Source of the DNA: Fastidiosibacter lacustris
Lineage (GTDB): Bacteria > Pseudomonadota > Gammaproteobacteria > Francisellales > Francisellaceae
Reading direction: 5' to 3'
Length of the DNA stretch: 32,000 nt
Assembly (NCBI RefSeq): GCF_003428155.1
Contig: NZ_QLIR01000011.1
Span: 30,001-62,000, forward strand
The position numbers and the translations under genes are program-made. Below the pieces are notes generated by a model that was given only the letters and a program-made list of their open reading frames with translations, was not told the origin of the DNA and did no database searches. Positions within the stretch are counted from its first letter, which is position 1, and each line of letters opens with the position of its first letter. Below, in pieces: positions 2,830-32,000 of the stretch.

Positions 2830-4302
2830 TTAAATTTCTAATTCAGGCCACAACATATCTACTTTATCGATAATATCTTGACGCATGGTGATAACTTCTC
2901 CCCATTCACGGGTTGTTTCGCCAGGTAATTTATTGGTTGCATCTAACCCCATTTTAGAACCTAAGCTTGATACTGGCGAGGCAAAATCTAAGTAGTCGAT
3001 TGGTGTGTTATCAATAAGTGTTGTGTCTCGAATCGGATCCATACGAGTCGTAATCGCCCAGATAACGTCTTGCCAAGAGCGTATATTAATATCTTCATCG
3101 ACAACAATAACAAATTTGGTATACATGAACTGACGTAAGAATGACCATACTCCCATTATTATACGTTTGGCGTGTCCTGGATACTGCTTTTTAATACTTA
3201 CTACTGCCAAGCGATAAGAGCAACCTTCTGGTGGTAGATAGAAGTCGACAATTTCAGGAAACTGTTTTTGGATAATAGGGACAAATATTTCATTAAAAGC
3301 AACACCTAAAACGGCAGGCTCATCCGGTGGGCGACCAGTATAGGTACTATGATAAATCGGATTTTTGCGATGCGTTATTTTTTCAACTGTAAAAACAGGA
3401 AAGGTTTCAACTTCATTATAATAGCCTGTGTGATCACCATATGGACCTTCTTTTGCAGTTTCATTTGGATAGATATAACCTTCCAAAATAATTTCAGCAT
3501 AGGCTGGTATCATGATGTCATCACCGTGTAGTAAAGATGGTGTGAGCTCTGTTTTACTACCGCGCAAAAGACCTGCAAAGGCATATTCAGAAAGTGTATC
3601 AGGAACTGGAGTTACAGCAGCTAAAGTTGTAGCAGGATCTGCGCCTAATGCAACACAAACGGGGAAAGGTTGATCAGGATAAGTTTTACACCATGCTTGA
3701 TAATCAAGTGCACCACCTCGATGATGAAGCCAACGCATGATAAGTTTATTTTTACCAATCACTTGTTGGCGATAGATACCTAAGTTTAAACGCTCTTTCC
3801 TTATACTATTAGTAATAGTAAGTCCCCAAGTAATAAGTGGTGCAGCATCTTTTGGCCAACAGGTTTGAATTGGCATTTGATAAAAATTAATATTATCTTG
3901 CTCAATAATTACTTCACGGCAAGGTCCATTTTTTATGACTTTAGGTGACATCTTTAATACCTGCTTGAGAATTGGCATTTTTTCCCAAGCGTCTTTTAAT
4001 CCTTTAGGTGGTTCTGGTTCCTTAAGATAGGCTAAAAGCTTACCAATTTCACGTAATTTGTTGACATCGTCTGTACCAAGAGCAAGGGCAATACGCTTTT
4101 CTGTGCCAAATAAATTTGTCAATACAGGCATGTCATAACCTTTTGGATTTTCAAATAAGAGTGCGGGACCTTTTTGGCGTAAGACGCGGGAAGAAATTTC
4201 AGTCATTTCAAGGAATGGTGAGACTTCTTTGTAAATACGTTTGAGTTCATTGCGCTCTTCAAGATAATCTAAAAAATTTCGTAAGTCTTTGTAATGAAGC
4301 AT
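2830..4302 (-). CDS. ubiD: 4-hydroxy-3-polyprenylbenzoate decarboxylase (UbiD family)
   Basis: I trimmed track ORF 2830..4410 to ATG 4300-4302 ([23 protein letters not shown]). This aligns with the N-terminus recalled for E. coli UbiD (..YNDLRDFLTLLEQQGELKRI..). The result is 490 aa versus about 497 aa in E. coli. Confidence 0.92.
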
Positions 4303-4431
4303 GTTAAGCCTAAAGATATATCTATAAAGGCGTATAGTAGCGGCTTTGAATGTAAAATCAAGGGTAAGCAATAAGAGGGAATAAAAATTTGCAATTAGTG
4401 TAGATAACATAAAAATTCATCGGTAATTATG

Positions 4432-4501: not shown

Positions 4502-4936
4502 ATGTCATTAGGAAAAGAAGATCTTAAACAAGCAGGATTAAAGATAACGCAACAAAGGCTGAAAATATTAAGAATTTTTGAAAGTTCACAGCAGCGCCAT
4601 TTATCAGCTGATGATGTGTATAAAATTCTACAACAGAACAGTGAAGACGTTGGTATTGCTACTGTCTATCGTGTATTGGCTCAGTTTGAGTCAGCAGGAA
4701 TTTTGCAACGCCTTAACCTTGGTCGTGAACAAGCGGTTTACGAGCTAGAATCAGATGATCATCACGATCATATGATTTGCGTGAAATGTCATAAAGTAGA
4801 AGAGTTTATTGATTATGTCATTGAATCAAGACAAAATAAAGCAGTCGAAGAGCTAGGTGGTAGGCTTATTGAGCATAGTTCAGTGCTTTATATTGAATGT
4901 AAAGATTGTATAGCAGCAGATCAATCAAAAAAGTAA
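4502..4936 (+). CDS. fur: ferric uptake regulator
   Basis: 144 aa. It has the recognition helix VGIATVYRVLAQFESAGI, the metal-site block HHDHMICVKCHKVEEF and a C-terminal CKDC. These are the canonical Fur family layout. Confidence 0.93.
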   Translation: MSLGKEDLKQAGLKITQQRLKILRIFESSQQRHLSADDVYKILQQNSEDVGIATVYRVLAQFESAGILQRLNLGREQAVYELESDDHHDHMICVKCHKVEEFIDYVIESRQNKAVEELGGRLIEHSSVLYIECKDCIAADQSKK

Positions 4937-5052
4937 TAAAAAACTCATTAATGAAGTATATTTACCTAATTCAAATCATTTGCGGCTTTTATGCTAAAAG
5001 AATTGTGATGGGTTACACTTAAGCATGGTAACAGAACATACAGGGCAGAGCT

Positions 5053-5346
5053 ATGAACAAGATAGATCATGTGGCAATCGTGGTGGAAGATTTGGATACA
5101 ACGGTTCAGTGGTATTTGGCACATTTTAAGGCAAAACTTATTTATCAAGACAAGACGTGGGCAATGCTTGAGTTTGCAAATATTAAGCTTGCTTTCGTGA
5201 TATCCAATGAGCATCCAGCACATATTGCCTTTATTTCTAAGGATGCTAAACGATATGGAAAATTAAAACGTCATCGTGATGATACTTACTCATGTTATAT
5301 AAAAGATCCCTCTGGTAATGTTGTTGAGATTGTAAAATCAGAATAA
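5053..5346 (+). CDS. VOC-fold (glyoxalase/bleomycin resistance/dioxygenase family) protein
   Basis: 97 aa. The pattern IDHVAIVVEDLD...HPAHIAF...YIKDPSGNVVEIV is typical of single-module VOC proteins. No specific function can be assigned. Confidence 0.65.
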   Translation: MNKIDHVAIVVEDLDTTVQWYLAHFKAKLIYQDKTWAMLEFANIKLAFVISNEHPAHIAFISKDAKRYGKLKRHRDDTYSCYIKDPSGNVVEIVKSE

Positions 5347-5426
5347 CTTTATAGTGAGATAAAACAAAATTTGCTAGCACAAGAAGATGCTTTTTGTTAT
5401 GCTTTGCCAACATTAACAATGTTTAA

Positions 5427-7094
<1,668 letters not shown>

Positions 7095-7103
7095 GGTAAC
7101 AGG

Positions 7104-7394
7104 TTAAATAAAAACCTGATAAGCTGTAGCATACTTAATTGGATCAAAGCTGTGATAGCTATAGCTAGCAACGTTTTCGATTACAAATGGATCTTGTTTT
7201 ATGAGTTGTTTAATTTCATTTAAGTCCCCACTTGCTAAAATAACCCCTCCATTTTTGTCACTGTTTGGACCAGATGCGATAAATAGACCTGCCTCATAAC
7301 CTCGATCCAGAAATTTACGATGTTTTGGACGTATTTCATCAATAATATGGGTAGGTTGAGTGTAAGTAATTATAATAATATGAGTTTGTTTCAT
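7104..7394 (-). CDS. YciI-like protein
   Basis: 96 aa. The pattern RPKHRKFL...ASGP...GGVILA...IKQDPFVIENVASY..FDP follows the YciI family layout (R..H..L...GP...G...DP.V..GV). Confidence 0.7.
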   Translation of the reverse strand: MKQTHIIIITYTQPTHIIDEIRPKHRKFLDRGYEAGLFIASGPNSDKNGGVILASGDLNEIKQLIKQDPFVIENVASYSYHSFDPIKYATAYQVFI

Positions 7395-7640
7395 TTTGCT
7401 TGTGGGTTTATCGTCAAGGTTATATATTGTTGAGAATATACCTTAAGAAGCTGAAAAACCATGGATTTTCTCAGAATTCAATCATGCGAAAATGAATGGA
7501 TTTTATGGTAGTGTTTTTCAATAGATAGCATTACAGCGTTATCCGGTTTCTCAAGCCTATTTGTCCCTTGAGTTACCATATCGTTTAAATTGCATACATT
7601 TCTAGTTGCTAATGACTGTTAGGAATACGCTTCTAGTTTT

Positions 7641-10600
7641 TTAATTAACCCACTTGCGTGCATTCATAAACAAGCGCATCCATGGGGAGTATTCAAGGTC
7701 TTTATTGCGCCAATCAGCAGGATACCATGACATTTGGACGAGCCTAAATGCACGTTCAGGATGTGGCATCATAATCGTGACACGCCCATCTTGTGAGGTA
7801 AAACCTGTAAAACCACCTGCAGAACCATTGGGATTTAATGGATAATATTCAGTGGGATTGCTGTGGCTATCAATAAAACGTAAGGTTGTTTGTTTATTGA
7901 CTATCAACGAATTTAAATCATTTTGATGTTGATATTGAGTCCGTCCTTCTCCATGTGAGATGACGATTGGCATTTTTAAGCCTTGCATTTCTTGAAATAT
8001 AATAGAAGGTGTTTCCAATACTTCAACCATCGAAAGCCGTGCTTCAAACTGCTCAGATAGGTTTCTAACAAACCTTGGCCAATGCTCGGCACCAGGGATA
8101 ATATCTTTTAACTGCGATAGCATTTGACAGCCATTACACATCCCAACTGTGAATGTGTCGCTTCGATTAAAGAAATGTACAAACTGATCGTAGAGTTTAT
8201 TATCAAATAGAATTGACTTTGCCCAACCACCACCAGCGCCTAATACATCTCCATAAGAAAAACCACCACAAGTAGCTAAGCCTTTGAATTTATTAAGGTC
8301 AAGTCGATTGTACTGTAAATCACTCATATGGACATCAATTGCATCAAAACCACTCAAAGTGAAAGCAGCAGCCATTTCATTGTGGCTGTTTATGCCTTGT
8401 TCGCGCAAAATCGCAATTTTAGGTTTGATATTTAAATTTAAATAAGGTGCAGCAATATTTTCTTTATGGCTAAAAGGTACTTGGGCAAATAGTCCATGAT
8501 CGGTTAGACCCTTAATGAGTGTGTGTTCTTGATCGGCACATTGAGCATTGTCACGCATACGCTGAATTTGGTATGAAGTTTGTGACCACAGTGCTTGTAG
8601 TTCTGCTCTTGTAGCGCAGAAAATTTCGTCAATATCGTTGTAGATAATAAATTTCGCATCCTCAACTGAAGCATTTGGTTTACCAATTCGATGTGCTTTT
8701 AATTGGAAGCTTGTTAAAAGCTGCATAACGATATCGTGATCAATGTTGCGCGTTTGAATAACTGCACCAAGTTCTTCATTGAATAAAGCCGCATGTACAT
8801 CCTCGCCCAAAGCTTCAATATCAATATCAAGTCCACACTTAGCAGCAAACATCATTTCGCAGAGGGTCACAAATAACCCACCATCAGAACGATCGTGATA
8901 AGCAAGAATTTTATCGTCTTTAACAAGCTTATGAATAGCAGCAAAGAAGTTTTGCAAGTGTTTAGGTTCAATGTCAGGTGTTTGTTGTCCAAGTTCGTTG
9001 TAAACTTGTGCAAATGCGGAGCCACCTAAGCGATTTTTACCAATACCTAAGTCGATAAAAATTAAATCAGATTCAAAGGCTAAGCGCAATTGTGGTGTTA
9101 ATGTGCGGCGAATATCTTGTACGGGCGCAAAGGCTGTTGCAATTAATGATACAGGAGAGACCACTATTTTATCACCCTCTTCATCCTGCCACTTGGTTTG
9201 CATCGAAAGTGAATCTTTACCAACAGGAATAGTTAAGTCTAGCTGTGGACAAAATTCCATGCCGATGGTTTTAACCATCTCATATAACCTAGCATCTTCA
9301 CCTTTATGTCCACATGCTGCCATCCAATTTGCAGAAAGCTTAACGTCAGAGAGATGATAGATGTATGCTGCTGCAATGTTTGTAATTGCTTCACCAATTG
9401 TCATTCTGGCAGCGGCAGCTGGGTTCATCATCGCAAGTATGGGGCGCTCTCCCATTGCCATAGCCTCACCGTGATAATCAGTAAAACTGGCAGCTGTAAC
9501 AGCAACGTCAGCAACAGGTACCTGCCAAGGTCCCACCATTTGATCGCGCTGAGTCATGCCACCAACAGTTCTATCGCCTATAGTGATTAAGAATTTCTTA
9601 CTACCAACAGCAGGTAGGCGTAAAATGCGTTTAACTGCTTCATGCAAATTAATGCTAGAATAATCCCAGTTTGTTTTGTAATTTGGAGTTGAGCACACAT
9701 TTTTAAGAGTTTTAGGTGGTTTACCTAATAAAACAGACAGTGGCATATGGATGGGGTCAACAGCAGAAGCGCTGTCTTTTAAAATTAAGATTTGTTCTTC
9801 TATTGCTTCACCAACGATGGTATAAGGACAGCGTTCACGTTTAGCAATTTTGTCAAATAAGCTTAAATCTTTCCTTTCAATGGATAATACATATCGCTCT
9901 TGTGATTCATTGCACCATATTTCAAGTGGAGATAAGCCCTTTTCAGCAACAGTAATTTTATCTAACTCAAACACTGCACCTCGTGCGCAATCTGCAACCA
10001 ACTCAGGTAAAGCATTAGAAAGTCCACCAGCACCAACATCATGAATACTGATAATAGGATTATCTATACCCATTGACCAGCAGCTATCAATAACTTCTTG
10101 CACGCGACGTTCCATCTCAGCATTATCACGCTGCACAGAAGCAAAGTCTAATGCCTCATTCGAATGACCTGCATTAACAGAGGAGGCAGCTCCTCCCCCT
10201 AAACCAATCAGCATTCCAGGTCCTCCTAAGACAATGATTTTAGCACCAACTGGAATTTTGCGTTTTTCGATATGTTCCTCTTTGATGTTACCATAGCCGC
10301 CTGCGATCATGATTGGCTTGTGATAACCCCACACATCTCCATTAAAGGATTGCTCAAAGGTGCGAAAATAACCACATAGATTAGGGCGCCCAAATTCGTT
10401 ATTAAATGCAGCTCCACCTAATGGTGCTTCTATCATAATATCTAATGCTGAAGAAATATGTTTAGGTTTGCCGTAAGATTTTTCCCACGGTTGAATATCG
10501 TTTGGTAACAGAAGATTGGACACGGTGTAACCGGTTAAACCAGCTTTGGGTTTAGCACCACGACCTGTTGCACCTTCGTCACGTATTTCACCTCCTGCAC

Positions 10601-11528
10601 CTGTTGCTGCTCCTGGATAAGGTGCAATTGCCGTTGGGTGATTGTGAGTTTCAACTTTTATCTGAATATGGATAGGCTCTCGCTTAAAGTGATATAAACC
10701 ATTTTGATCTTTTTGCAGACGTTCAGCTGCGTACCCGGCAATTACTGCGGCATTATCATGATAAGCGGATAAAATATTTTCTTTGTGGTGATCATAAGTA
10801 TTTTTTATCATCGAAAATAAACCATTTGGTTTTGCTTGACCATCGATGATCCAATCTGCTTTAAAGATCTTATGTCGACAATGCTCAGAGTTAGCTTGAG
10901 CAAACATCATAAGCTCAACATCGGTTGGATTACGACCCAAATTTTCAAAGGCATGAGCTAAATAATTTATCTCGTCTTCCGAGAGTGCTAAACCAAGTCT
11001 ATTATTAGTGTCATTTAATGCATTTTTACCGTGTTCTAGAAGAGGGATGATTTTGAGTATCCCTTGACCATGTGTGTTAGCAAATGGATTAATAGTATTG
11101 ATGTCAAAACTAAAACTTTGCGTCATCCGATCATGTAATACAGAAGCCATTTTGTTTAAGTTTTCTTTACTTAATATAACATTGGTTTGAAGGTAATATA
11201 CAGTTCCACGTTCGACTCGTTTAAGATCAGTAAAGCCACAGTTATGGAGTATATCTGTTGCTTTGGATGACCAGGGGGAAATTGTTCCTATGCGTGGAAG
11301 GACGATCAATGAAGTCCCAGATTTATCGTTAAGCTTACCTTTATCACCATAGTCTAAAAGTGCTTCAAGTTTCTTTTGCTGTGTATCACTTAAAGTATTG
11401 GCATAATCAATAAAATGAAGATATTCAGCTTGAATATTGGTGATATTAGGTTCAATCGATTGTAATTTCTTAAGCAGTTTTTGTTGGTCAAAAGAGGATA
11501 AGGCATCGTTACCAAACATTTGTAACAT
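7641..11528 (-). CDS. purL: phosphoribosylformylglycinamidine (FGAM) synthase, single-chain large form
   Basis: 1295 aa, the same length class as E. coli PurL. It has the N-terminal ALSSF..QKLL, the central [24 protein letters not shown] block and a C-terminal glutaminase domain with GMCNGCQM. Confidence 0.97.
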
Positions 11529-11634
11529 CTTTGTACTCGTGGATGAAAGCTTAGCATGTCCTTATTTTGATAGATTTACCCCCAATTATAAAGTGCTAAA
11601 TGCGATTATTTTTTCTTGTGATTAGAAGCTTTTG

Positions 11635-13521
11635 TTATTGTCCTTCAAACTCAGAAAGCATTTCCCAGAGCTGGTATTTTTCATTTAGCAAGGTTGTTTT
11701 TTCTTCTAGTATCTGCTGGGTTTGTTGAATGTTGACTTTATCTTGTTGGTAAAATTGGGGTTCAGACATTTGTTGTTGCAAAGATTGAATTTCAGACTCA
11801 AGTTTTTCAATTTCATCAGGTAAGGCAGCAAGTTGTTTTGTTTGTGCATAAGAGAGCTTTTTTGGGGGATTCGCTTTATCTTTTATTGGCTGGACTGACT
11901 TTGGTTTTGATTTTTCAAGAACTTCAGATGCAAATTGTTTTTGACGCAGCCAGTCGTCATAACCACCGATGTATTCTTCCAACTTTCCATTGCCTTGAAA
12001 CACGATTGTGCTAGTAGCTATATTGTTAATAAAGCTTCGATCATGGCTAACGATAAGCACAGTACCGGTATAGTCAAGAATCAAACTTTCTAATACTTCT
12101 AAAGTTTCAACGTCTAGGTCATTAGTTGGTTCATCAAGTACCAAAATATTACTGGGTTTGGCAAAGAGTTTAGCAAGTAATAGGCGGTTACGTTCTCCTC
12201 CTGAAAGTGAGGAAGCGGGGCTTTGCATGCGTTTTGGGTCAAATAAAAAGTTTTGAAGATAGCCTATAACGTGTACTTTTTGATTATTGATATCAAGATA
12301 ATCACTACCTTCCGTTACATTATCAACTAACGATAAGTTGGGATTAATTTGATTTCGAAGCTGGTCAAAATAAGCAATTTGTAGGTTTTCACCGTGAATA
12401 ATATTGCCAAAAGAGGGAGGGCGCTTTTTAAGCAAAACCTGTAGCAATGTACTTTTACCACAACCATTCGCACCAAGGATTGCAATTTTATCTCCACGTT
12501 GTATTTCACATGAGAAATGATTAAAGATTGAGTTGTTTTGATAACTAAAACCAAGGTTTTCAGCTCGAATAACAACTTTGCTGGATTTACTACCTTGGGA
12601 TGCACTTAATGATACATTACCTTGTTGTTCTCGCCTTGCACTTCTTTGTTCACGCATGATTTTAAGCGCACGAACGCGCCCTTCGTTACGTGTGCGCCTG
12701 GCTTTAATGCCTTGACGAATCCAAGCTTCTTCTTGCTTAAGTTTTTTATCAAAATTGGTATTTTGCACATCTTCAGCGTGTAAATATGCTTCTTTTTGTT
12801 CTAAGAAGCGTTCATAATTTCCTGGAAAACTAAGAACTTTACCTCGATCAAGTTCCATAATATCAGTGGCAATATTTTGTAAAAAACTACGATCGTGAGT
12901 AATAAATAAAATACTACCTTTAAATTGCAATAAAAAACGTTCAAGGAACTCTATCGATTCGATATCAAGATGGTTAGTTGGCTCATCTAATAGTAATAAG
13001 TCAGGTGATTTTACAAGCGCCTTAGCTAGTAAAACTCGACGCTTAAGACCTCCAGATAAATCATCAAACGGAGCTTCTTTATCTAGTGATAACTTAGAGA
13101 GCACTTTTTCCACTTCAGTTTGAGCTTCCCAACCATGTGCATCGTCAATTTGTTTTTGTAAGTCGCTTAGTTTAGATAGGTTATCAGGCAAGCTTAAATC
13201 AGTTTGCAGTTGATGTTGATAACTTGTTAATATTTGACCAAGTTCCCCGAAACCCGCTAAAACAACGTCAAAGACCGTGCCTTTAGTATTTTCTGGTACC
13301 TCTTGTTCAAGCCATGCAATTTTGGTGTTATTATGAACAATTCGTTCACCACTATCAGGTAAAATTTGACCTTGTAATACTTTAAAAAGGGAGGATTTTC
13401 CTGTGCCATTTCGTCCAATTAAACAAATACGTTTATTGGACTCGATGTCTAAAGAAATATTATCAAGGAGTTTATGGTGACCAAAGGCAAGGTCGGCATT
13501 GCGTAAAGAGATAATAGCCAT
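11635..13521 (-). CDS. uup: ABC-F family ATPase, Uup-like (no transmembrane domain)
   Basis: 628 aa with two ABC cassettes (GRNGTGKSS/LSGGLKRR/LLLDEPTNHLD and GANGCGKST/LSGGERNR/LVLDEPTNDLD). It has a charged inter-cassette linker and a C-terminal coiled-coil-like tail. Size and architecture match Uup (about 635 aa in E. coli). Confidence 0.85.
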   Translation of the reverse strand: MAIISLRNADLAFGHHKLLDNISLDIESNKRICLIGRNGTGKSSLFKVLQGQILPDSGERIVHNNTKIAWLEQEVPENTKGTVFDVVLAGFGELGQILTSYQHQLQTDLSLPDNLSKLSDLQKQIDDAHGWEAQTEVEKVLSKLSLDKEAPFDDLSGGLKRRVLLAKALVKSPDLLLLDEPTNHLDIESIEFLERFLLQFKGSILFITHDRSFLQNIATDIMELDRGKVLSFPGNYERFLEQKEAYLHAEDVQNTNFDKKLKQEEAWIRQGIKARRTRNEGRVRALKIMREQRSARREQQGNVSLSASQGSKSSKVVIRAENLGFSYQNNSIFNHFSCEIQRGDKIAILGANGCGKSTLLQVLLKKRPPSFGNIIHGENLQIAYFDQLRNQINPNLSLVDNVTEGSDYLDINNQKVHVIGYLQNFLFDPKRMQSPASSLSGGERNRLLLAKLFAKPSNILVLDEPTNDLDVETLEVLESLILDYTGTVLIVSHDRSFINNIATSTIVFQGNGKLEEYIGGYDDWLRQKQFASEVLEKSKPKSVQPIKDKANPPKKLSYAQTKQLAALPDEIEKLESEIQSLQQQMSEPQFYQQDKVNIQQTQQILEEKTTLLNEKYQLWEMLSEFEGQ

Positions 13522-14122: not shown

Positions 14123-14374
14123 AAATACTCGTCCTTTAATCTTTAGTGATAAGTCGCACATAAGTCTAATCAGGATTGCGCTACATTGCAAACCTTGTGA
14201 GATGTAAAGTTAACATATGTCTATCAGCTTGCTTGTAAAAACTTTGTAGCGTCAACCAAAATAATAGCCAATTGCCGGCAACAGTATTTTAGTCTGTTTA
14301 TTATCTGAGTTTTCTTATGCTTGAAAATATGCTTAAATCAAGCAGCTGTTTGATTATAAATGGAGTTAAATAAC

Positions 14375-15754
14375 ATGGGAATACGTATAGAAACTGATAG
14401 TATAGGTGAGATTGAGGTCAATAGTAACAAGTATTGGGGTGCGCAAACAGAGCGCTCATTGATACATTTTTCAATTGGGAACGATTTAATTCCACAGGAA
14501 GTCATCAAGGCGATGGCAATATTGAAAAAAGCATCTGCTTTAGCAAATTTTGAGTTAGGGCTTTTAAAAAAAAAATACAAGGATTTAATTGCTCAAGCAG
14601 CTGATGAAGTTATAGATGGCAAGCATGATGATCAATTCCCCTTACATGTGTGGATGACTGGCAGTGGCACACAATCAAATATGAATGTTAATGAAGTAAT
14701 TTCAAATCGTGCTATTGAATTAGCAGGTGGGATATTAGGTAGTAAAGATCCTATTCACCCTAACGATCATGTCAACATGTCTCAATCATCAAACGATACT
14801 TTCCCAACAGCTATGTATATTGCAACAGCAATCAGCGTAAAAAAGAAACTTGTTCCCGCTTTGCAAACGATATATACGGAAATGAATAGTAAAGTTAAAG
14901 AATGGGAAAAAATTGTAAAGATTGGGCGCACTCATATGCAAGATGCAGTGCCTTTAACGTTAGGGCAAGAGTTTTCAGGATATGCTGAGTTATTAAAGCA
15001 AGATATTAGCCGTTTAGAAGCAGCATTAACAGATGTTTATCAACTTGCAATTGGAGGGACAGCAGTTGGGACGGGATTAAATGCACCAAAAGAATTTGCA
15101 CAAAAAGCATGTAAGCATATTGCGAAAATTACGGGATTGCCTTTTATTTCTGCTGAAAATAAGTTCGCAGTACAAGGCTCACACGATGCTTTAGTAGCAA
15201 TGATGGCACAAATTAAAGTGTTAGCAAATTCATTATTTAAAATAGCCAATGATATCCGACTGTTAAGCTGTGGACCTCGCGCTGGTTTCCATGAACTTTT
15301 GTTGCCTGAAAATGAACCTGGTTCTTCTATTATGCCTGGCAAAGTTAACCCTACTCAATGTGAAGCGATGACGATGGCATGTGTGCAGGTTTTTGGTTAT
15401 GATCTGGCAGTAACCATTGCAGGCAGTGCGGGTTACTTGGAAATGAACGTTTATAAGCCGCTCATTATCTATAATATTTTGCAATCTATAAATATGTTAT
15501 CGGATAGCTGCATTAATTTTACACGTTTTACGTTAGCGGGCACAAAACCTAATAAAAAGAAAATTGAAGAGTATTTACATAATTCGTTGATGCTTGTGAC
15601 AGCATTAAGTCCCGTGATTGGGTATGATAAAGCATCAAAAATAGCGCATTATGCCGATAAACATAACCTATCCTTAAGTGAAGCAAATAAGGCTTTAGGT
15701 TTTTTGCCTGAAGATGAGTTTAATCAGGTGGTCGATCCTTATAAAATGGTTTAA
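14375..15754 (+). CDS. fumC: class II fumarate hydratase
   Basis: It carries the fumarate-lyase signature [19 protein letters not shown] and the N-terminus [27 protein letters not shown] trimmed the start from ATG 14360 to ATG 14375, which has GGAG 9 nt upstream. Either start is possible. Confidence 0.95.
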
Positions 15755-25153: not shown

Positions 25154-27535
25154 ATGAAATTCAGTCATCAATGGTTGAGCAATTATTTGGATGAAAGCCC
25201 CACAGTGAGTGTGCTTAAGGAAAAACTCACCACAGCAGGATTAGAAGTCGATTCAATTGAGGCGGTCGCACCACCTTTTAGTGGTGTTGTTGTAGCAGAA
25301 ATTAAAAGTATTGAAAAACATCGAGCTGCCGATAAGTTAAATATTTGCCAAGTAGATATTGGTGAAGATGAGCTATTGACTATCGTTTGTGGAGCAGGAA
25401 ATGTTTACGCCGGAATGAAAGCACCACTGGCAAAAATTGGAGCACGGTTGCCTGGTGATTTTAAAATCAAAAAAAGTGAGCTTAGAGGGCAAGAGTCTTT
25501 TGGTATGTTGTGCTCGGAAAAAGAGCTAGGCATAAGTGAAGAAAGTGAAGGTTTAATGGACTTACCTATTGACGCCCCTATTGGTATAGATATACGCCAG
25601 TATTTACAGTTGGACGATGATGTTATAGAAGTCGACTTAACGCCAAATCGCGCCGATTGTTTAAGTGTTTATGGTATTGCTAGAGAAGTGTCAGCCTTAA
25701 CAAGTTCAAAATTAATAAAATTACCAGTAGTTGAATTACAAGCAACACAAAAAGCATCTAAAACCATAATAAGCCAAGCAAGCACACTTTGTCCGCGCTA
25801 TTTTGGACGAATGATTAAAAGCGTTAATACTAAAGCTACAACACCTTTGTGGATGAAAGAGCGGTTACGTCGTTCAGGTTTGCGTTCAATTTCAGTTATT
25901 GTAGATATTACCAATTACGTTCTACTTGAACTTGGTCAGCCGATGCACGCATTTGATGCTGATAAACTAACAGGTAGTGTTTATACACGTATGGCAAAAG
26001 AGGGTGAGAAGATTATTTTGCTAGATGAGACTGAGGTGACTTTAAAAAGCAATACGCTTGTTATTGCTGATGATAACAAAGTGTTGGCAATTGCAGGTGT
26101 GATGGGTGGGCTTTATTCTTCGGTGACGGAAAACAGCAAGACTATATTCTTAGAAAGTGCTTATTTTACACCAGAGGCAATCGCAGGAAAAGCGCGTCAA
26201 TATGGACTTCACACCGATTCATCTCATCGATTTGAACGTGGTGTAGATCCTAATCTTTGTGCATATGCAATTGATTATGCAACTTATCTTATTCTTGATA
26301 TTGCTGGTGGAGAAATAGAAGATCTAGCAGTTGCAGATCACTATGTTGATGAAAACAAAATAATAACTTTGCGTTTGAGCAAGATTAATTCTATTTTAGG
26401 GATGAATTTTGAGACAAGTTATGTTGAGCAAATACTTCAATCATTGAATATCTCTATCAATAAATTATCACAAGATGCAAATGAAACACTTTGGCAGGTA
26501 ATCCCGCCAAGCTATCGTTTTGATATAGCAATTGAAGAAGACTTGATTGAAGAGGTTGGTCGTATTTATGGCTATCAAAACTTACCGATGAGTTTACCAG
26601 AAGTATCTTTGATACAACAGCAGGTATCTGAACAGGTAGTGGCGCTTAATCGTTTAAAAATAGTTTTGGTTGATCGTGGTTATCATGAGGTAGTGAATTA
26701 CAGTTTTATCGACCCTAAACTAGATGCTTTATTTTTTAACCAGGCGGGACTTACATTACAAAACCCAATTTCACAAGATATGTCAGTGATGCGCCAAGGT
26801 CTGATTCCTGGGTTAGTCAGTACTTTTAAGTTCAACTTAAACCGTCAACAGTCACGCATACGCATTTTTGAAGAAGGAGTGTGCTTTCAACCAGCTGAGC
26901 AGCTGGCACATGAATATTTGCATTTTGCAGGTCTTGCTTATGGCAATATCAATCCACTGAATTGGCAAGAAACAACTTTAGCAGACTTCTATTCTGTTAA
27001 AGCCGATGTGGAGGCGTTACTACAACTTAATAAAAAGTCGATTAATTATGTTACATGTGAAGATATCGATTGGTTGCACCCAGGTCAGTCTGCTTATATT
27101 TACCAAAACGGCGAGCAAGTTGGTGTGATTGGTATTTTGCATCCAAATATTATGAAAGTCATGCAGATTAAGGGGAAATCACCTGTCGTATTTGAGCTGC
27201 AAACTAGCAAAATTTCAAATCGAGATATTGCTAAGTTCATGGCAATTTCAAAATATCCAGCGGTTTCACGTGACATTGCGGTGATTGTTGATCGAAATAC
27301 AACAGCTCAAAGGTTAATCGATGCAGTGAATAAAGCAAATGTATCACATTTGAATCAAGTGGATTTATTTGACATCTATCAAGGCGAAAGCTTGCCTGAA
27401 GATAAGAAGAGTGTTGCTTTAAATTTAATATTTCAAGACAATACGCAAACGCTGACTGATGAAATGATGAATGAAGCAATTACTAAAATTCTTACCTCTT
27501 TAAAAACCCATGTGGATGCGAGTTTGCGTGAATAG
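25154..27535 (+). CDS. pheT: phenylalanine--tRNA ligase beta subunit
   Basis: 793 aa. The N-terminus MKFSHQWLSNYL matches E. coli MKFSELWLREWV. Total length and position immediately after pheS fit pheT. Confidence 0.96.
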   Translation: MKFSHQWLSNYLDESPTVSVLKEKLTTAGLEVDSIEAVAPPFSGVVVAEIKSIEKHRAADKLNICQVDIGEDELLTIVCGAGNVYAGMKAPLAKIGARLPGDFKIKKSELRGQESFGMLCSEKELGISEESEGLMDLPIDAPIGIDIRQYLQLDDDVIEVDLTPNRADCLSVYGIAREVSALTSSKLIKLPVVELQATQKASKTIISQASTLCPRYFGRMIKSVNTKATTPLWMKERLRRSGLRSISVIVDITNYVLLELGQPMHAFDADKLTGSVYTRMAKEGEKIILLDETEVTLKSNTLVIADDNKVLAIAGVMGGLYSSVTENSKTIFLESAYFTPEAIAGKARQYGLHTDSSHRFERGVDPNLCAYAIDYATYLILDIAGGEIEDLAVADHYVDENKIITLRLSKINSILGMNFETSYVEQILQSLNISINKLSQDANETLWQVIPPSYRFDIAIEEDLIEEVGRIYGYQNLPMSLPEVSLIQQQVSEQVVALNRLKIVLVDRGYHEVVNYSFIDPKLDALFFNQAGLTLQNPISQDMSVMRQGLIPGLVSTFKFNLNRQQSRIRIFEEGVCFQPAEQLAHEYLHFAGLAYGNINPLNWQETTLADFYSVKADVEALLQLNKKSINYVTCEDIDWLHPGQSAYIYQNGEQVGVIGILHPNIMKVMQIKGKSPVVFELQTSKISNRDIAKFMAISKYPAVSRDIAVIVDRNTTAQRLIDAVNKANVSHLNQVDLFDIYQGESLPEDKKSVALNLIFQDNTQTLTDEMMNEAITKILTSLKTHVDASLRE

Positions 27536-27541
27536 GGTTAG

Positions 27542-28063
27542 TTAATAACAGTACTCAATTGCTTTGAAAATTCCCTGTATGATTTGAACAGGTGAAGGAG
27601 GGCACCCTTTGACAACTACATCCACTGGAATAATCCCTTGAATTCCTCCTTCAACCGCATAACTGTCTTTAAAAACGCCTCCACAATGCGCACAATCACC
27701 TATAGCTAGAACTAACTTTGGATGAGGCATGGCCTCATAGGTTTTAACAAGCGCATCACGCATATTTTTGGTTATAGGACCTGTCACAAATAACATGTCG
27801 GCATGACGGGGACTTGCAACAAATCGTATACCATAGCTCTCAAGGTTATAAAAGGGATTGTTAGTTGCATGAACTTCAAGTTCGCAGGCATTACAAGAGC
27901 CGGCATCCACCATACGAATAGCAAGTGCTTTACCAAAACGTTGAGCAATTCTTTTTTCAAGTATCTTGCCAACTATTTCTAGATCATCAATATCATTAAC
28001 TATAGGGTTTATTTTTTCACTTTTAATACCTGTTTTAAGTAACTTTTTTGTAAACTTCCACAT
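27542..28063 (-). CDS. NuoB/HycG/HyfI-type small subunit of a group-4-hydrogenase-like complex ([4Fe-4S] ligands intact)
   Basis: 173 aa with the blocks DAGSCNACELE, SPRHADMLFVTGPIT, AIGDCAHCGG and GCPPSP. Cys57, Cys60, Cys124 and Cys154 show the canonical CxxC-(63)-C-(29)-CP spacing. GAGGA lies about 10 nt upstream of the ATG, and the start is 2 nt after the stop of the preceding gene. Confidence 0.88.
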   Translation of the reverse strand: MWKFTKKLLKTGIKSEKINPIVNDIDDLEIVGKILEKRIAQRFGKALAIRMVDAGSCNACELEVHATNNPFYNLESYGIRFVASPRHADMLFVTGPITKNMRDALVKTYEAMPHPKLVLAIGDCAHCGGVFKDSYAVEGGIQGIIPVDVVVKGCPPSPVQIIQGIFKAIEYCY

Positions 28064-28065
28064 GA

Positions 28066-29592
28066 TTAGCTGTCCTCACCACTGTAGCTTAAGTTAAAAG
28101 ATTTATTAATAAGTGGAAAATCAGCAACGATATTATTCATAACAGCATGACTTAATGCAGGCCAGTTTTGCCATGAAGGATCGTGGAAATGGCACCATGA
28201 AACTTTAGTATCATGAAGTTGGACTGCAATACATATAGGGCCTCTCCAACTCTCTACGCACATAATACTGATCTTTTCTGTTGAGGATTGATCTATGTCA
28301 AGTGCTTGTGTACAGTTATTGAATCCTAATTGCAAAAATTGTTCAATCATATCAATGCTTTGTAAGCATTCACGAAAACGCACATATACGCGTGCAGCGA
28401 CATCACCTGTTTCTGCCGTTATAGGTGTAAAATCAATTTCAGAATAAGGATAAAGTGTGCAGGATGCCCTGGCATCGATAGCAATGCCAGATGCCTTTGC
28501 GATTATACCTAAAACACCTAAAGATTGAGCAAGAGTATGCGTTAAAATACCGGTTGTTTTCAAGCGATCTTGAAGTCCATGGTGATCATGATAAATCTGC
28601 TCTAATTGGAACAACTGCTTTTTTACATCATTAAGGTGGTTGAGTAAATCATGTACTATAGATTTATCCCACATAGTCATATACTGTTGTGGGGAGATGG
28701 CATCCATCATATATCGATGATGTGTTAGCAGTTTATTCTCACGTACAAGTTTTTCTTTTAAGATGGAGAATTGCATTGCTAAGCTGATAAAACCGGTGTC
28801 GTTAATAATAGCACCAATATCACCGATGTGGTTAATCAAGCGTTCGCGTTCAAGTAAAATAGCACGTATACATTTTGTTTTAGCATCTATTTCAAAGCCA
28901 AGCTGCTTCTCACAAGCAAGTGCAAAAGCATAAGCATAAGCTACAGTAGTGTCACCACTTACTCTTCCAAGTAAAGAAGCTGCTTCTGACATGCTTTTAT
29001 TGATAAGTAAAGAATGAATGCCTTTATGTGTGTATCCCAATCGATCTTCTAGTTTTAAAATTCGCTCACCAACGATAGAAAAACGAAAGTGTCCAGGTTC
29101 GATAATTCCTGCATGCACAGGACCTACTGGAATTTCATGGACTCCTTCTCCTGAGACTTTGTTAAAAACATAATGTAATTTGGCAAAGCGACTTGATTTG
29201 CTGTAGGGATTTAAAATTCCCATTTTGAAATGACCATGATTTAGCCATGCACGTTTATCTTTTGCTTTTTTTGTTGGAATTTTGGTTAAATCGTGGATAG
29301 CTCTGTGTAATCTCTCATTTATAGGAAAGGCTTCACTTAAATCAATAAGCATTGGTCGTTTTGGATTTAGTCGAGACACAATGCAGAGCCAGTAGGCTTG
29401 ATAATAATACAATACATACCAGTTCGTTTCATTTGAAGAGGAGTCAAAAGCAATCCATTCTGTAAGCAAAAGACCATTTTGAGATTTAATTTCTTTAGCA
29501 AGAGGATATTGTAACCTAATATCAACAGATAAATATTGATAAGCCTTGATGTTATTAAAGTGTAAAAGATCATTCAGCATTGTTTTATTCAT
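28066..29592 (-). CDS. fused NuoC+NuoD / HycE-HyfG-type large-subunit homologue lacking the [NiFe] cysteine ligands
   Basis: 508 aa. Residues 1 to about 140 form a NuoC-like N-domain (PINERLHRAIHDL). The HycE/NuoD-type core follows (IPVGPVHAGIIEPGHFRFSIVGERILKLEDRLGYTHKGI). The L1 motif position reads RVSGDTTVAY instead of RxCGxCxxxH. The C-terminus reads NLSYSGEDS-stop instead of DPCxxCxx[H/R]. Confidence 0.88.
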   Translation of the reverse strand: MNKTMLNDLLHFNNIKAYQYLSVDIRLQYPLAKEIKSQNGLLLTEWIAFDSSSNETNWYVLYYYQAYWLCIVSRLNPKRPMLIDLSEAFPINERLHRAIHDLTKIPTKKAKDKRAWLNHGHFKMGILNPYSKSSRFAKLHYVFNKVSGEGVHEIPVGPVHAGIIEPGHFRFSIVGERILKLEDRLGYTHKGIHSLLINKSMSEAASLLGRVSGDTTVAYAYAFALACEKQLGFEIDAKTKCIRAILLERERLINHIGDIGAIINDTGFISLAMQFSILKEKLVRENKLLTHHRYMMDAISPQQYMTMWDKSIVHDLLNHLNDVKKQLFQLEQIYHDHHGLQDRLKTTGILTHTLAQSLGVLGIIAKASGIAIDARASCTLYPYSEIDFTPITAETGDVAARVYVRFRECLQSIDMIEQFLQLGFNNCTQALDIDQSSTEKISIMCVESWRGPICIAVQLHDTKVSWCHFHDPSWQNWPALSHAVMNNIVADFPLINKSFNLSYSGEDS

Positions 29593-31049: not shown

Positions 31050-31699
31050 ATACGCTCCTTTAGTTTCTCAAATAACTGAACTTGGAAGGAACCATGCTCT
31101 TGCTGTATTCGGATTAAGAATAGTGTGAAAATCATAAAACCCATAAGGATATCAAAACTCATCCCAAGTTCGATTAGCCAAGGGAATCCTGTGCTTATCG
31201 CTGCGGCTAGAATAAAGATACTGTTTTCTAATACTAATAGACCCATTACTTGAGTGACAGTTTTTCTTCTAAAAGTAATGATTAATACAGCTACAAATGC
31301 ATTGGCAAGTCCAAGTGAAAATCCTGAAATGTAGCGATGAAGCATACTGTTGACCAACTGCTGTCCTAAAATTAATGCCAAGAGAATAAGCGCAGATGCT
31401 AGTAACAGTAGACTAGGCTTATTCAGTATTGGTTCAATACGTCCGGAAAGGTGTAAAAATTGAACTAATTTCCATAGTAAAAATGGTAAAAGAATAACTT
31501 TGATGCCAATGGTAATAATTAAAGAAATAAATACTTCCATGCTTGGTGCATAGATCGTTTCTGTGAGTATGTAACTACTTAAAAGCACATTCTGAATAAT
31601 TAAAAGTTTGATTACATTCGTAATGTAAGATTGGATTAACATTAAACTACTACATAGTAGCATTGAACTTATCAAAAAAAGCAACCAACTATGAATCAT
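31046..31699 (-). CDS. HyfE-like small membrane subunit (NuoK-related)
   Basis: 217 aa (E. coli HyfE is about 216 aa) and multi-TM. The membrane-embedded Glu block GLLVLENSIFILAAAI matches the recalled HyfE block GYCLMENGSHLVLALL. Its position between the NuoH-like and antiporter-like genes is as in hyf. Confidence 0.75.
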   Translation of the reverse strand: MIHSWLLFLISSMLLCSSLMLIQSYITNVIKLLIIQNVLLSSYILTETIYAPSMEVFISLIITIGIKVILLPFLLWKLVQFLHLSGRIEPILNKPSLLLLASALILLALILGQQLVNSMLHRYISGFSLGLANAFVAVLIITFRRKTVTQVMGLLVLENSIFILAAAISTGFPWLIELGMSFDILMGFMIFTLFLIRIQQEHGSFQVQLFEKLKERI

Positions 31700-32000
31700 G
31701 CTGTTGTTCCTATTAATTGTGTTAAAAGAATACCCAGAAAAGCAAGGAAAAGTGCTAAACCAAGGTACTCTGGTATTCTAAATATACGCACCTTAGTTTG
31801 TAGTGTTTCTGTAATTGCAAGTAGTGCCAATAATATAATAAGTTTGACTAAGGTTGTGATGAATCCAACTGTAATGGATAATAACGAAGTTTCTACCGCT
31901 AAACCAAAAGGAAAAAACAAATTGATAAAGATCAATAAAAATAATTCCAACTTTAACGCATTACTCCATTCTATAGCGGCTAAATATCTCCCTGAATATT
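31696..32000 (-). CDS. NuoH/HycD/HyfC-type membrane subunit, C-terminal part only (continues past window end)
   Basis: The minus-strand frame stays open from TGA 31696-31698 to base 32000 (..YSGRYLAAIEWSNALKLELFLLIFINLFFPFG...). The track's TTG start at 31950 is therefore internal. The (E)YSG-containing segment followed by TM helices is typical of the NuoH/HycD family. Confidence 0.7.
   Translation of the reverse strand, partial: YSGRYLAAIEWSNALKLELFLLIFINLFFPFGLAVETSLLSITVGFITTLVKLIILLALLAITETLQTKVRIFRIPEYLGLALFLAFLGILLTQLIGTTA

Follow-up and report, generated by a model that had tools for sequence, protein, structure and literature searches.

A HyfG-like large subunit without the [NiFe] cysteine ligands in a six-gene operon of the Ehr/Hyq family

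What becomes of a hydrogenase-type large subunit when the cysteines that would hold its metal centre have gone? The question is raised by a 32,000-nt stretch of DNA from Fastidiosibacter lacustris (contig NZ_QLIR01000011.1, positions 30,001 to 62,000; hereafter the window), whose reverse strand encodes a HyfG-like protein, a NuoC-NuoD fusion related to the large subunits of group 4 [NiFe]-hydrogenases. Those enzymes carry an N-terminal L1 motif, RxCGxCxxxH, and a C-terminal L2 motif, DPCxxCxx[H/R], and the window protein matches neither. The original prediction, made from the letters of the sequence, held that all four Ni-Fe cysteine ligands are substituted and that the protein ends at a degenerate form of the second motif. 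We found that the ligands are indeed lost, but that what stands in their place is not degenerate: a distinct signature, SGDxTVAY plus NLSYSGxD, is conserved throughout the family. On comparative evidence the protein is very probably the large subunit of a six-subunit membrane complex of the Ehr/Hyq type that lacks a canonical Ni-Fe centre, and its lineage is almost certainly derived from the group 4 [NiFe]-hydrogenases of the Hyf/formate hydrogenlyase (FHL) type through loss of the four cysteine ligands.

The former nickel-iron ligand positions

The hyfG-like open reading frame (ORF) is unbroken, with 508 codons from an ATG to a TAA, and, as predicted, it is translationally coupled to its neighbours: the TGA of the upstream hyfF overlaps the hyfG ATG in the tetranucleotide ATGA (29589-29592), and the hyfI ATG lies 2 nt past the hyfG stop codon. 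The product matched Pfam Complex1_49kDa (E=4e-26). Codon arithmetic agreed with the original prediction in placing RVSGDTTVAY at residues 210-219 (R210-T215 at 28948-28965) and NLSYSGEDS directly before the stop, and both of the flanking strings it had named, IPVGPVHAGIIEPGHFRF and DFPLINKSF, are present (Table 1).

Registration of these segments was tested by phmmer against the HycE chain of the FHL structure (PDB 7z0s_E), by MAFFT alignment with native E. coli HycE and HyfG, and by searching a 30-sequence family profile against all PDB sequences. The two E. coli proteins both carry RVCGICGFAH and DPCYSCTDR exactly (HycE residues 239-248 and 529-537), the latter as the original prediction gave it. 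All three alignments placed RVSGDTTVAY under HycE R239-V-C241-G-I-C244-G-F-A-H248 and NLSYSGED under D529-P-C531-Y-S-C534-T-D536; the MbhL counterpart of the former is RMCGICSFSH. No cysteine of the window protein fell in a ligand column. The four ligand cysteines and the L1 histidine are all replaced, and the Tyr, Ser and Asp of the L2 motif are kept, which is what had been claimed. A scan of the whole protein detected no CxxC pair, again as claimed, and no C-x(1-5)-C; its nine cysteines stand at residues 70, 227, 241, 378, 409, 427, 445, 454 and 467. The chain stops one residue past D507. In HycE this last position is R537, behind which the maturation protease cleaves, and the window protein therefore has no C-terminal extension, another point on which the original prediction was right.

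The replacement residues are a property of the family. R[VI]SGD[ST]TVA[YF] and NLSYSGxD occupy the ligand positions in 120/120 of the closest database homologues (100% to 41% identity), a minority of which keep a cysteine, at the first ligand position only. The same motifs recur, with minor variants only, in 81 genomic loci, comprising the locus of the source organism and 80 kept from species-representative genomes, so the substituted codons are not sequencing errors. The 30-sequence alignment shows no variation at D214, T216, N500, Y503 and D507, and conservation of 90% or more at S212, G213, S502, S504 and G505. A longer signature, R[VI]SGD[ST]TVA[YF] ... HDPSWQNW ... DFPLINKSFNLSYSGxD, was present in the window protein and in 120/120 of the top homologues; it was derived in the present analysis and has no published definition.

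Many of the remaining constraints are shared with active hydrogenases. HycE and HyfG have 63 of the family-invariant positions in common with the window protein, including the proton-relay-type Glu165, Arg210 and the Arg450 of an E-x-x-R-G motif; a further 38 invariant positions are specific to the family, and many of these are polar (D214, N254, D258, N264, D265, D297, D342, H468, D471, N496, K497 and N500). Family-invariant residues of the IPVGPVHAGIIEPGHFRF segment are H160, E165 and H168, of which E165 corresponds to the hydrogenase-type glutamate. The ratio of nonsynonymous to synonymous substitution rates (dN/dS) in hyfG was 0.09-0.24 across 13 independent pairs, as expected under purifying selection; these were moderately diverged pairs from elsewhere in the family, as the nearest homologues of the window gene for which DNA was available are ~60% identical and therefore saturated. 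We therefore regard the HyfG-like protein as a real gene product under selection. The strength with which SGDxTVAY and NLSYSGxD are conserved points to a remodelled functional pocket, and it argues for a former active site that was rebuilt and then held fixed, with another strongly conserved signature in place of the hydrogenase motifs.

The closest solved relative of the window protein, in sequence and in fold, is E. coli HycE; identity to HycE and HyfG is 23-24%, and all three have a NuoC-like N-terminal domain. HycE was the best PDB sequence match (phmmer, E=2e-31). The family profile, whose alignment to HycE begins at residue ~22 of the window protein, scored HycE at 247 bits, MbhL at 151, Nqo4 at 136, MbsL (6u8y_L) at 101 and E. 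coli NuoCD at 85. An AlphaFold monomer (predicted template modelling score 0.84, mean predicted local distance difference test (pLDDT) 79) gave the HycE chain 7z0s_E as its best fold match, with a template modelling (TM) score of 0.82, followed by fused NuoCD chains, which are matched along the full length of the chains; the fold search ranked relatives in the same order as the profile bit-scores. NuoD equivalog models scored below their cutoffs (NF004739, 144 bits versus 360; TIGR01962, 112 versus 459). Because profile and fold favour HycE, NuoD scores are low and the quinone ligands of complex I are absent, we assign the protein as a Ni-free large subunit of Hyf/FHL descent and not as a NuoD. 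Relatedness was judged by profile bit-scores against solved structures together with the published placement of such proteins near group 4f/4a (PMC10284858, PMC10432482).

Table 1. Positions of the hyfG-like gene, its motifs, the other operon genes and further features. Positions without a prefix are those of the window; L-numbers denote individual loci of the 81-locus set.
Feature	Position	Strand	Basis or remark
hyfG/ehrL/hyqG-like large subunit, 508 aa, NuoC-NuoD fusion without [NiFe] Cys ligands	28066..29592	-	ORF, Pfam, PDB match, AlphaFold
NuoC/HycE-N-like N-terminal domain, residues ~1-140	29173..29592	-	PF00329 recorded for most homologues
Conserved beta1-beta2 segment IPVGPVHAGIIEPGHFRF, residues 154-171	29080..29133	-	alignments, profile
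L1-motif equivalent RVSGDTTVAY, residues 210-219	28936..28965	-	three alignments, homologue motifs
L2-motif equivalent NLSYSGEDS, residues 500-508, extreme C-terminus, then stop	28069..28095	-	alignments
S212 codon, at HycE Cys241	28957-28959	-	ligand replaced
T215 codon, at HycE Cys244	28948-28950	-	ligand replaced
Y219, at HycE His248			L1 histidine replaced
S502 codon, at HycE Cys531	28087-28089	-	ligand replaced
G505 codon, at HycE Cys534	28078-28080	-	ligand replaced
Y503, S504, D507, at HycE Tyr532, Ser533, Asp536			kept
hyfB-like, NuoL-type, 645 aa	outside window, upstream of hyfC		full operon on source contig
hyfC-like, NuoH-type, 320 aa in full; 3' part in window	31696..32000	-	rest runs off window
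hyfE-like small membrane subunit, 217 aa	31046..31699	-	NCBIfam, operon position
hyfF-like antiporter-like membrane subunit, 486 aa	29589..31049	-	Pfam Proton_antipo_M
hyfI/ehrS/hyqI-like NuoB-type small subunit, 173 aa	27542..28063	-	Pfam Oxidored_q6 E=2.5e-31
UbiD-family decarboxylase (ubiquinone biosynthesis)	2830-4410	-	
Fur	4502-4936	+	
Class II fumarase (fumarase C)	14360-15754	+	
Alpha-type loci L044, L061, L064-L066, L068, L069, L072, L076, L078-L081, L084	hyfG-like gene ~10001-11300 in most		
Spermidine-synthase-like gene	L006:3811-4638, L010:11907-12938, L011:3119-3955, L015:3516-4271, L024:3688-4446		PF01564, weak
Spermidine-synthase-like gene	L036:2507-3343, L041:2716-3540, L053:3987-4727, L063:3991-5019		PF01564, weak

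Partner subunits and family membership

The gene belongs to a six-gene operon, hyfB-hyfC-hyfE-hyfF-hyfG-hyfI, which occupies 5007-12051 of the source-organism locus (L001, from a contig of GCA_024208055.1); hyfE, hyfF, hyfG and hyfI lie in the window whole, together with the 3' end of hyfC. The HyfG protein of that contig clusters at at least 90% identity with WP_116964181 of Fastidiosibacter lacustris. This gene order was kept in essentially all complete loci among the 80 genomes. By sequence and fold, then, the large subunit is homologous to those of group 4, and its partners are a NuoB-like small subunit and NuoH/NuoL-like membrane proteins.

The membrane subunits are most similar to HyfB, HyfC, HyfE and HyfF and were placed nearer Hyf than Nuo by NCBIfam. 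The HyfF-like protein scored 430 bits against 'hydrogenase 4 subunit F', under the equivalog cutoff, and the HyfE-like protein matched 'hydrogenase 4 membrane subunit' over its full length (E=1.8e-10), also under cutoff, in a conserved operon position. Both HyfB and HyfF keep the Glu of transmembrane helix (TM) 5, the Lys of TM7 and the Glu of TM12 found in Nuo/Mrp antiporter-like subunits, in the pattern of E. coli HyfB/HyfF; in the HyfF-like protein these are Glu135, Lys223 and Glu397, retained as in E. coli HyfF and NuoM. HyfC retains the residues common to NuoH, HycD and HyfC (R41, D103, R136, E145, PFD200-202, E209, EYSG220-223, K272 and R291). The HyfI-like small subunit scored above the cutoff of an NCBIfam NuoB subfamily and has all four [4Fe-4S] cysteines (C57, C60, C124 and C154). 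C57 and C60 were found in 79/79 orthologues, C124 in 78/79 and C154 in 76/79, the exceptions being gaps and one Leu; the remaining two cysteines of the protein vary freely among orthologues. At the hyfG-hyfI junction (window 28061-28095), a Shine-Dalgarno-like GGTGAGGA preceding hyfI sits in the last hyfG codons (ggt gag gac, G-E-D), so the C-terminal residues of HyfG are under a dual constraint, as protein motif and as ribosome-binding site.

Partners were sought by all-against-all clustering of the ORFs in the 81 loci, with antisense shadow ORFs of high-GC loci (clusters 5, 6, 8 and 11) discarded, and by tblastn with E. coli proteins. In the 81 loci no additional gene, whether formate dehydrogenase, hyp, protease, NuoI/HycF, NuoEFG or ferredoxin, was conserved beside the operon as a seventh member or partner. 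Queries with HycI, HycH, HypA, HypB, HycB, HyfA, HyfJ, NuoE, NuoF and NuoG gave no match within +/-10 kb in these loci or in the window, and neither Hyp genes nor a C-terminal endopeptidase were found in the window, in 21.5 kb of the source contig or within +/-10 kb of the 80 related loci. Likewise, nuoA, nuoE, nuoF, nuoG, nuoI, nuoJ and nuoK were absent from the operon and from the 10 kb around it. A HycF/NuoI-like ferredoxin match appeared in 2/81 loci only, each time in a separate paralogous operon. In contrast to the E. coli Hyf/Hyc systems, then, the window operon has replaced the four Ni-Fe cysteines and the L1 histidine and comes without C-terminal extension, protease, HyfA/D/H/J, FdhF or Hyp proteins.

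Complexes of this construction have been described before, as Ehr, as 'non-hydrogenase' hyfBCEFGI and as Hyq (PMC4378227, PMC10284858, PMC7735108, PMC2864759, PMC3357923), and the window operon is an ordinary member of this known, widespread and functionally unsolved family rather than a new discovery. Ehr is defined by a group-4-like large subunit lacking RxCGxCxxxH and DPCxxCxxH/R, with NuoH/NuoL/HyfE/HyfB-like neighbours and a function that is not known (PMC4378227, PMC10284858, PMC6349859). It has been reported from Sulfobacillus (PMC4378227), Nitrospira (PMC10284858, PMC12542776), ammonia-oxidising archaea (PMC10432482) and, in PMC6349859, which cites Marreiros et al. 2013 (BBA 1827:198), Margulisbacteria; reports also cover Geobacter (PMC4378227, PMC10284858, PMC10432482, PMC7894505, PMC6349859). 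Ehr complexes and the window operon share a large subunit without both CxxC pairs, a NuoB-like small subunit, and NuoH-like plus Mrp/NuoL-like membrane subunits. The name is nonetheless a heterogeneous umbrella, some clusters having at least seven genes or adjoining fdhA/nuoEF (Geobacter GSU0739-45, Margulisbacteria), whereas the window has the minimal B-C-E-F-G-I form without partner genes and without hyfA/D/H/J. Reviews up to 2025, over a decade past the recognition of Ehr-type complexes, still give no reaction for them (PMC10432482, PMC12542776).

The six-gene form is known from Cupriavidus metallidurans (Rmet_4666-4671) and C. necator (H16_A2196-2201) (PMC2864759), and from Acidithiobacillus ferrooxidans (DN052_15040-15065), where HydDB classes the catalytic subunit as a non-hydrogenase (PMC7735108). 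Gene order in these operons is that of the window, and their large subunits are ~40-43% identical to the window protein. Our family patterns recovered an Acidithiobacillus locus and many Burkholderiales loci, with motifs common to the window protein. What defines the class was also seen in the window and its source contig: no CxxC pair, the six-gene order, and a small subunit with four cysteines for a single N2-type cluster. Our literature search on the Cupriavidus locus tags and on hyq found no later functional work.

The member with a phenotype is Hyq of Azorhizobium caulinodans (hyqRBCEFGI, AZC_4355-4360; PMC2650096, PMC2930871, PMC3357923). It is under NifA control, and strains with an in-frame hyq deletion grow more slowly as diazotrophs and show altered H2 evolution (PMC2650096); hyq is also required for a high microaerobic H2 output, which persists in a nifK mutant (PMC3357923). 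Its authors noted that HyqG lacks both CxxC pairs, called a Ni-Fe site 'uncertain, if not unlikely', and described four HyqI cysteines for an N2-type cluster (PMC3357923). Hyq resembles the window operon in its six structural genes, their order and its 504-aa NuoC::D fusion. It differs in having the regulator hyqR and a NifA/sigma-54 promoter; upstream in the window genome are metK and a sigma-70-like match.

A second difference lies in the large subunit itself. HyqG Cys258, Cys491 and Cys497 are conserved in the alphaproteobacterial clade (PMC3357923), and 14/14 alpha-type loci in our set have cysteine at these three columns, within DFPLCNKSFNCSYSG. The corresponding residues of the window protein are I263, I495 and L501; in the remaining 67 loci the first column is Gly or Ile, the second Ile and the third Leu. 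The alpha-type loci share the family motifs in the form SGDSxVAY and N[LC]SYSGxD. One of the alpha-clade cysteines stands immediately ahead of the former third Ni-Fe ligand position. The alpha clade could thus have a site different from that of the rest of the family, perhaps one with a metal. As the three extra cysteines of that clade are absent from it, we place the window protein within the Hyq/Ehr family but outside the only clade with an H2 phenotype.

The family is common. At least 598 confirmed loci were found in a scan of one genome per species, and the 80 that were kept include Burkholderiales, Paraburkholderia, Bradyrhizobium, Azospirillum, Steroidobacter, Rhodanobacter, Gallionella, Acidithiobacillus, Thiomonas, Acidobacteria and Nitrospirae. 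The window lineage (Fastidiosibacter-like, 36% GC) forms a more divergent branch than the hyfBCEFGI clusters of Acidithiobacillus and Cupriavidus, its nearest relatives being metagenomic sequences 60-64% identical to the window protein.

Mechanism and competing explanations

How might such a complex work? It is probably a Ni-free, single-cluster, ion-translocating oxidoreductase that would link a soluble low-potential carrier to quinone. Taken whole, with the secure identity and the less secure donor/acceptor scheme blended in one figure, we give this explanation a probability of about 0.55; the carrier-to-quinone scheme by itself is tentative, and we would sooner doubt it than rely on it. The former active-site pocket has been rebuilt with a conserved set of hydroxyl and carboxylate residues (S212, D214, T215, T216, N500, S502, Y503, G505 and D507), while E165, R210 and R450 of the hydrogenase scaffold are kept, and the sole redox centre left would be the [4Fe-4S] cluster of the NuoB-like HyfI. 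Because there is no NuoI/HycF-type subunit and no dehydrogenase module, a soluble one-electron carrier of the ferredoxin or flavodoxin type would dock at the place of HycF/NuoI and trade electrons directly with the cluster, which would pass them to, or receive them from, a substrate bound in the pocket where HyfG, HyfI and HyfC meet. Ubiquinone is the most plausible such substrate, since the organism makes it, as the UbiD encoded in the window suggests. Redox-linked charge changes at this site would be coupled, as cause or as consequence, to the passage of ions through HyfC, HyfE, HyfB and HyfF, and the complex may work in either direction.

Several observations weigh against this scheme. In complex I structures the quinone head-group ligands are His38 and Tyr87 of Nqo4 (T. 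thermophilus numbering). Gapless HMMER alignments to 2fug_4 put I164 and G213 of the window protein in these positions, so the complex I quinone-pocket pair has no equivalent here and a quinone site would need a different construction. In the AlphaFold model, the very segments that form the pocket (residues 139-189 and 504-508) have a pLDDT below 50. A ferredoxin or flavodoxin gene is not conserved beside the operon in the 81 loci, and a donor or acceptor has been demonstrated biochemically for no family member. Finally, the Azorhizobium genetics ties H2 uptake and evolution to hyq, with the activity persisting in the nifK mutant (PMC3357923), data that a plain ferredoxin:quinone model leaves unexplained.

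These points bear on what else the pocket might do. The missing quinone ligands, the Mrp-type antiporter modules and the family-invariant acids D214, D258, D265, D297, D342 and D471, which could form a cation or proton path, would also suit a complex whose pocket or proximal cluster reduces a non-quinone substrate, as the Ni-free Mbs/Mbx of Pyrococcus do with sulfane sulfur, or one that is mainly a cation or proton transporter with a structural or regulatory cluster; many carriers are acid-tolerant or lithotrophic (Acidithiobacillus, Gallionella, Thiomonas, Acidobacteria, Rhodanobacter, Nitrospirae). MbsL/MbxL, NuoD/Nqo4 and the window protein are indeed alike as Ni-free descendants of the hydrogenase fold seated on a NuoB-type cluster and a NuoH-type subunit. 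We nevertheless think both versions unlikely. Fe-S ligands kept in 76-79 of 79 orthologues go beyond the usual need of a purely structural cluster, the 13-subunit set of Mbs is not shared by the six-subunit operon, MbsL is well behind HycE in the profile search, and sulfur-metabolism genes are not conserved near the operon. The Hyq authors, arguing from genetics only, proposed a reversible H2:quinone 'endo-hydrogenase' (PMC2650096, PMC3357923), which for HyqBCEFGI and the window complex would mean an unorthodox hydrogenase whose site dispenses with the four canonical cysteines. The deletion phenotype, the NifA control and the nifK-independent H2 output speak for it, the window protein is of one family with Hyq and has its gene order and motifs, and the hydrogenase-specific scaffold is kept at E165, R210, R450 (the 'PRG-type' arginine) and D507. 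We hold this to be quite unlikely here: Hyq comes without enzymology or metal analysis, and its own authors doubt the Ni-Fe site (PMC3357923); the three alpha-clade cysteines (window positions 263, 495 and 501) are absent from the window protein and the other 67 loci; hyp or protease genes are near 0/81 loci; HydDB gives the class as non-hydrogenase (PMC7735108); and, as cited in PMC12542776, the Nitrospira moscoviensis complex is reported as not expressed under H2-oxidising conditions. Improbable, too, is a new catalytic centre in the rebuilt pocket (S212, D214, T215, T216, N500, S502, Y503, G505, D507, with Glu165 and a pendant Arg450), that is, a cysteine-independent metal site or a metal-free site beside the [4Fe-4S] cluster that would carry out H2/H+ chemistry, such as the Azorhizobium genetics suggests, or another small-molecule redox reaction in oxygen-exposed bacteria, coupled to ion pumping. 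The original prediction had concluded that the protein cannot be a conventional H2-active subunit; this stands in that no canonical Cys-ligated [NiFe] centre is possible, whereas inactivity with H2 is a consensus view that Hyq genetics disputes (PMC2650096, PMC3357923).

Three further accounts were rejected. A genuine complex I NuoCD would explain the Complex1_49kDa and NuoB-family matches and the resemblance of the fold to NuoCD chains, but it has very little probability: NuoD equivalog scores are far under their cutoffs, His38 and Tyr87 are absent along with the NuoI/EFG electron-input chain that complex I has, no nuoA/E/F/G/I/J/K lies within 10 kb, the membrane subunits are nearer Hyf, and the profile is much nearer HycE than NuoD. 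Just as improbable is a decaying relic operon adrift from function. It would account for the lost catalytic ligands and for the loss of hyfA/D/H/J and the fdh partners relative to E. coli hyf, yet the six ORFs are unbroken and tightly coupled, dN/dS is low, the substituted positions are near-invariant, and the family is widespread with its order conserved. That the protein is a conventional [NiFe]-hydrogenase subunit, its cysteines missed through misregistration or sequencing error, has next to no probability despite its NCBI name, 'Ni,Fe-hydrogenase III large subunit', and HycE as its closest solved relative, since three alignment methods concur, the protein contains no CxxC, and 120 homologues and 81 loci from independent assemblies have identical replacements. 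Misregistration is thus excluded by the alignments, pseudogene decay by dN/dS and intact ORFs, and true complex I by NuoD scores and context.

With the carrier-to-quinone oxidoreductase as the favoured explanation, the window adds constraints of its own: the family-wide replacement signature, the strict retention of the NuoB-type cluster ligands alone, and the lack of an electron-input subunit. Together these narrow the mechanistic options and name targets for mutagenesis (D214, E165, S212/T215 and S502). In evolutionary terms, Ehr/Hyq complexes stand where hydrogenases that reduce protons meet the quinone-reducing complex I. They are frequent among aerobic bacteria of soil and fresh water, and among iron and sulfur oxidisers, rhizobia, Acidobacteria and nitrifiers. 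Databases list them under inconsistent and probably misleading names: 'hydrogenase 4', 'Ni,Fe-hydrogenase III' and 'NADH-quinone oxidoreductase subunit C' are routine, and 'hydrogenase large subunit' and 'hypothetical protein' also occur. Such annotation inflates or distorts the H2 and formate metabolism predicted from genomic and metagenomic data.

Genomic surroundings of the operon

Directly upstream of hyfB, across a 95-bp spacer, lies metK (S-adenosylmethionine synthetase; L001:3751-4911). A promoter scan of this spacer gave one sigma-70-like match, no better than chance. The GC content of the operon (35.5%) matches that of the window (36.5%), which argues that it is not a recent import. 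At the other end, pheT (+, stop 27533-27535) and hyfI (-, stop 27542-27544) converge with 6 bp between their stops, leaving no space for an intergenic hairpin. Elsewhere in the window, the genes for UbiD, Fur and fumarase (Table 1) are consistent with an aerobic, ubiquinone-using heterotroph, in which an H2-evolving enzyme does not obviously belong.

One neighbour alone recurred, a spermidine-synthase-like gene of ~250 aa, which adjoins the operon in nine loci of unrelated lineages (Burkholderiales, Acidobacteria, Steroidobacteraceae). It is absent at the operon of the window genome, where metK stands, and a link through S-adenosylmethionine or polyamines is conceivable.

Some loci contain more than one complex. 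A partial second copy of the operon (hyfF-hyfG-hyfI or hyfG-hyfI) directly precedes a complete hyfBCEFGI in 2/81 loci, and a few others have additional hyfB-like or hyfC-like genes. In Methylibium (L041:222-2704) and Aquabacterium (L015:1239-3491), a second, divergent complex without the cysteines ends directly upstream of the hyfBCEFGI-type operon. The large subunit of this complex, 29% identical to the window protein, has the motifs IVGDSSIAY and DLSYCGNDL; next comes a small subunit of NuoB type with a 2x[4Fe-4S] ferredoxin domain fused to it. By these features we assign the complex to a paralogous Ni-free lineage with an electron-input module. The Aquabacterium large subunit and fused small subunit were called as a single 750-aa frame.

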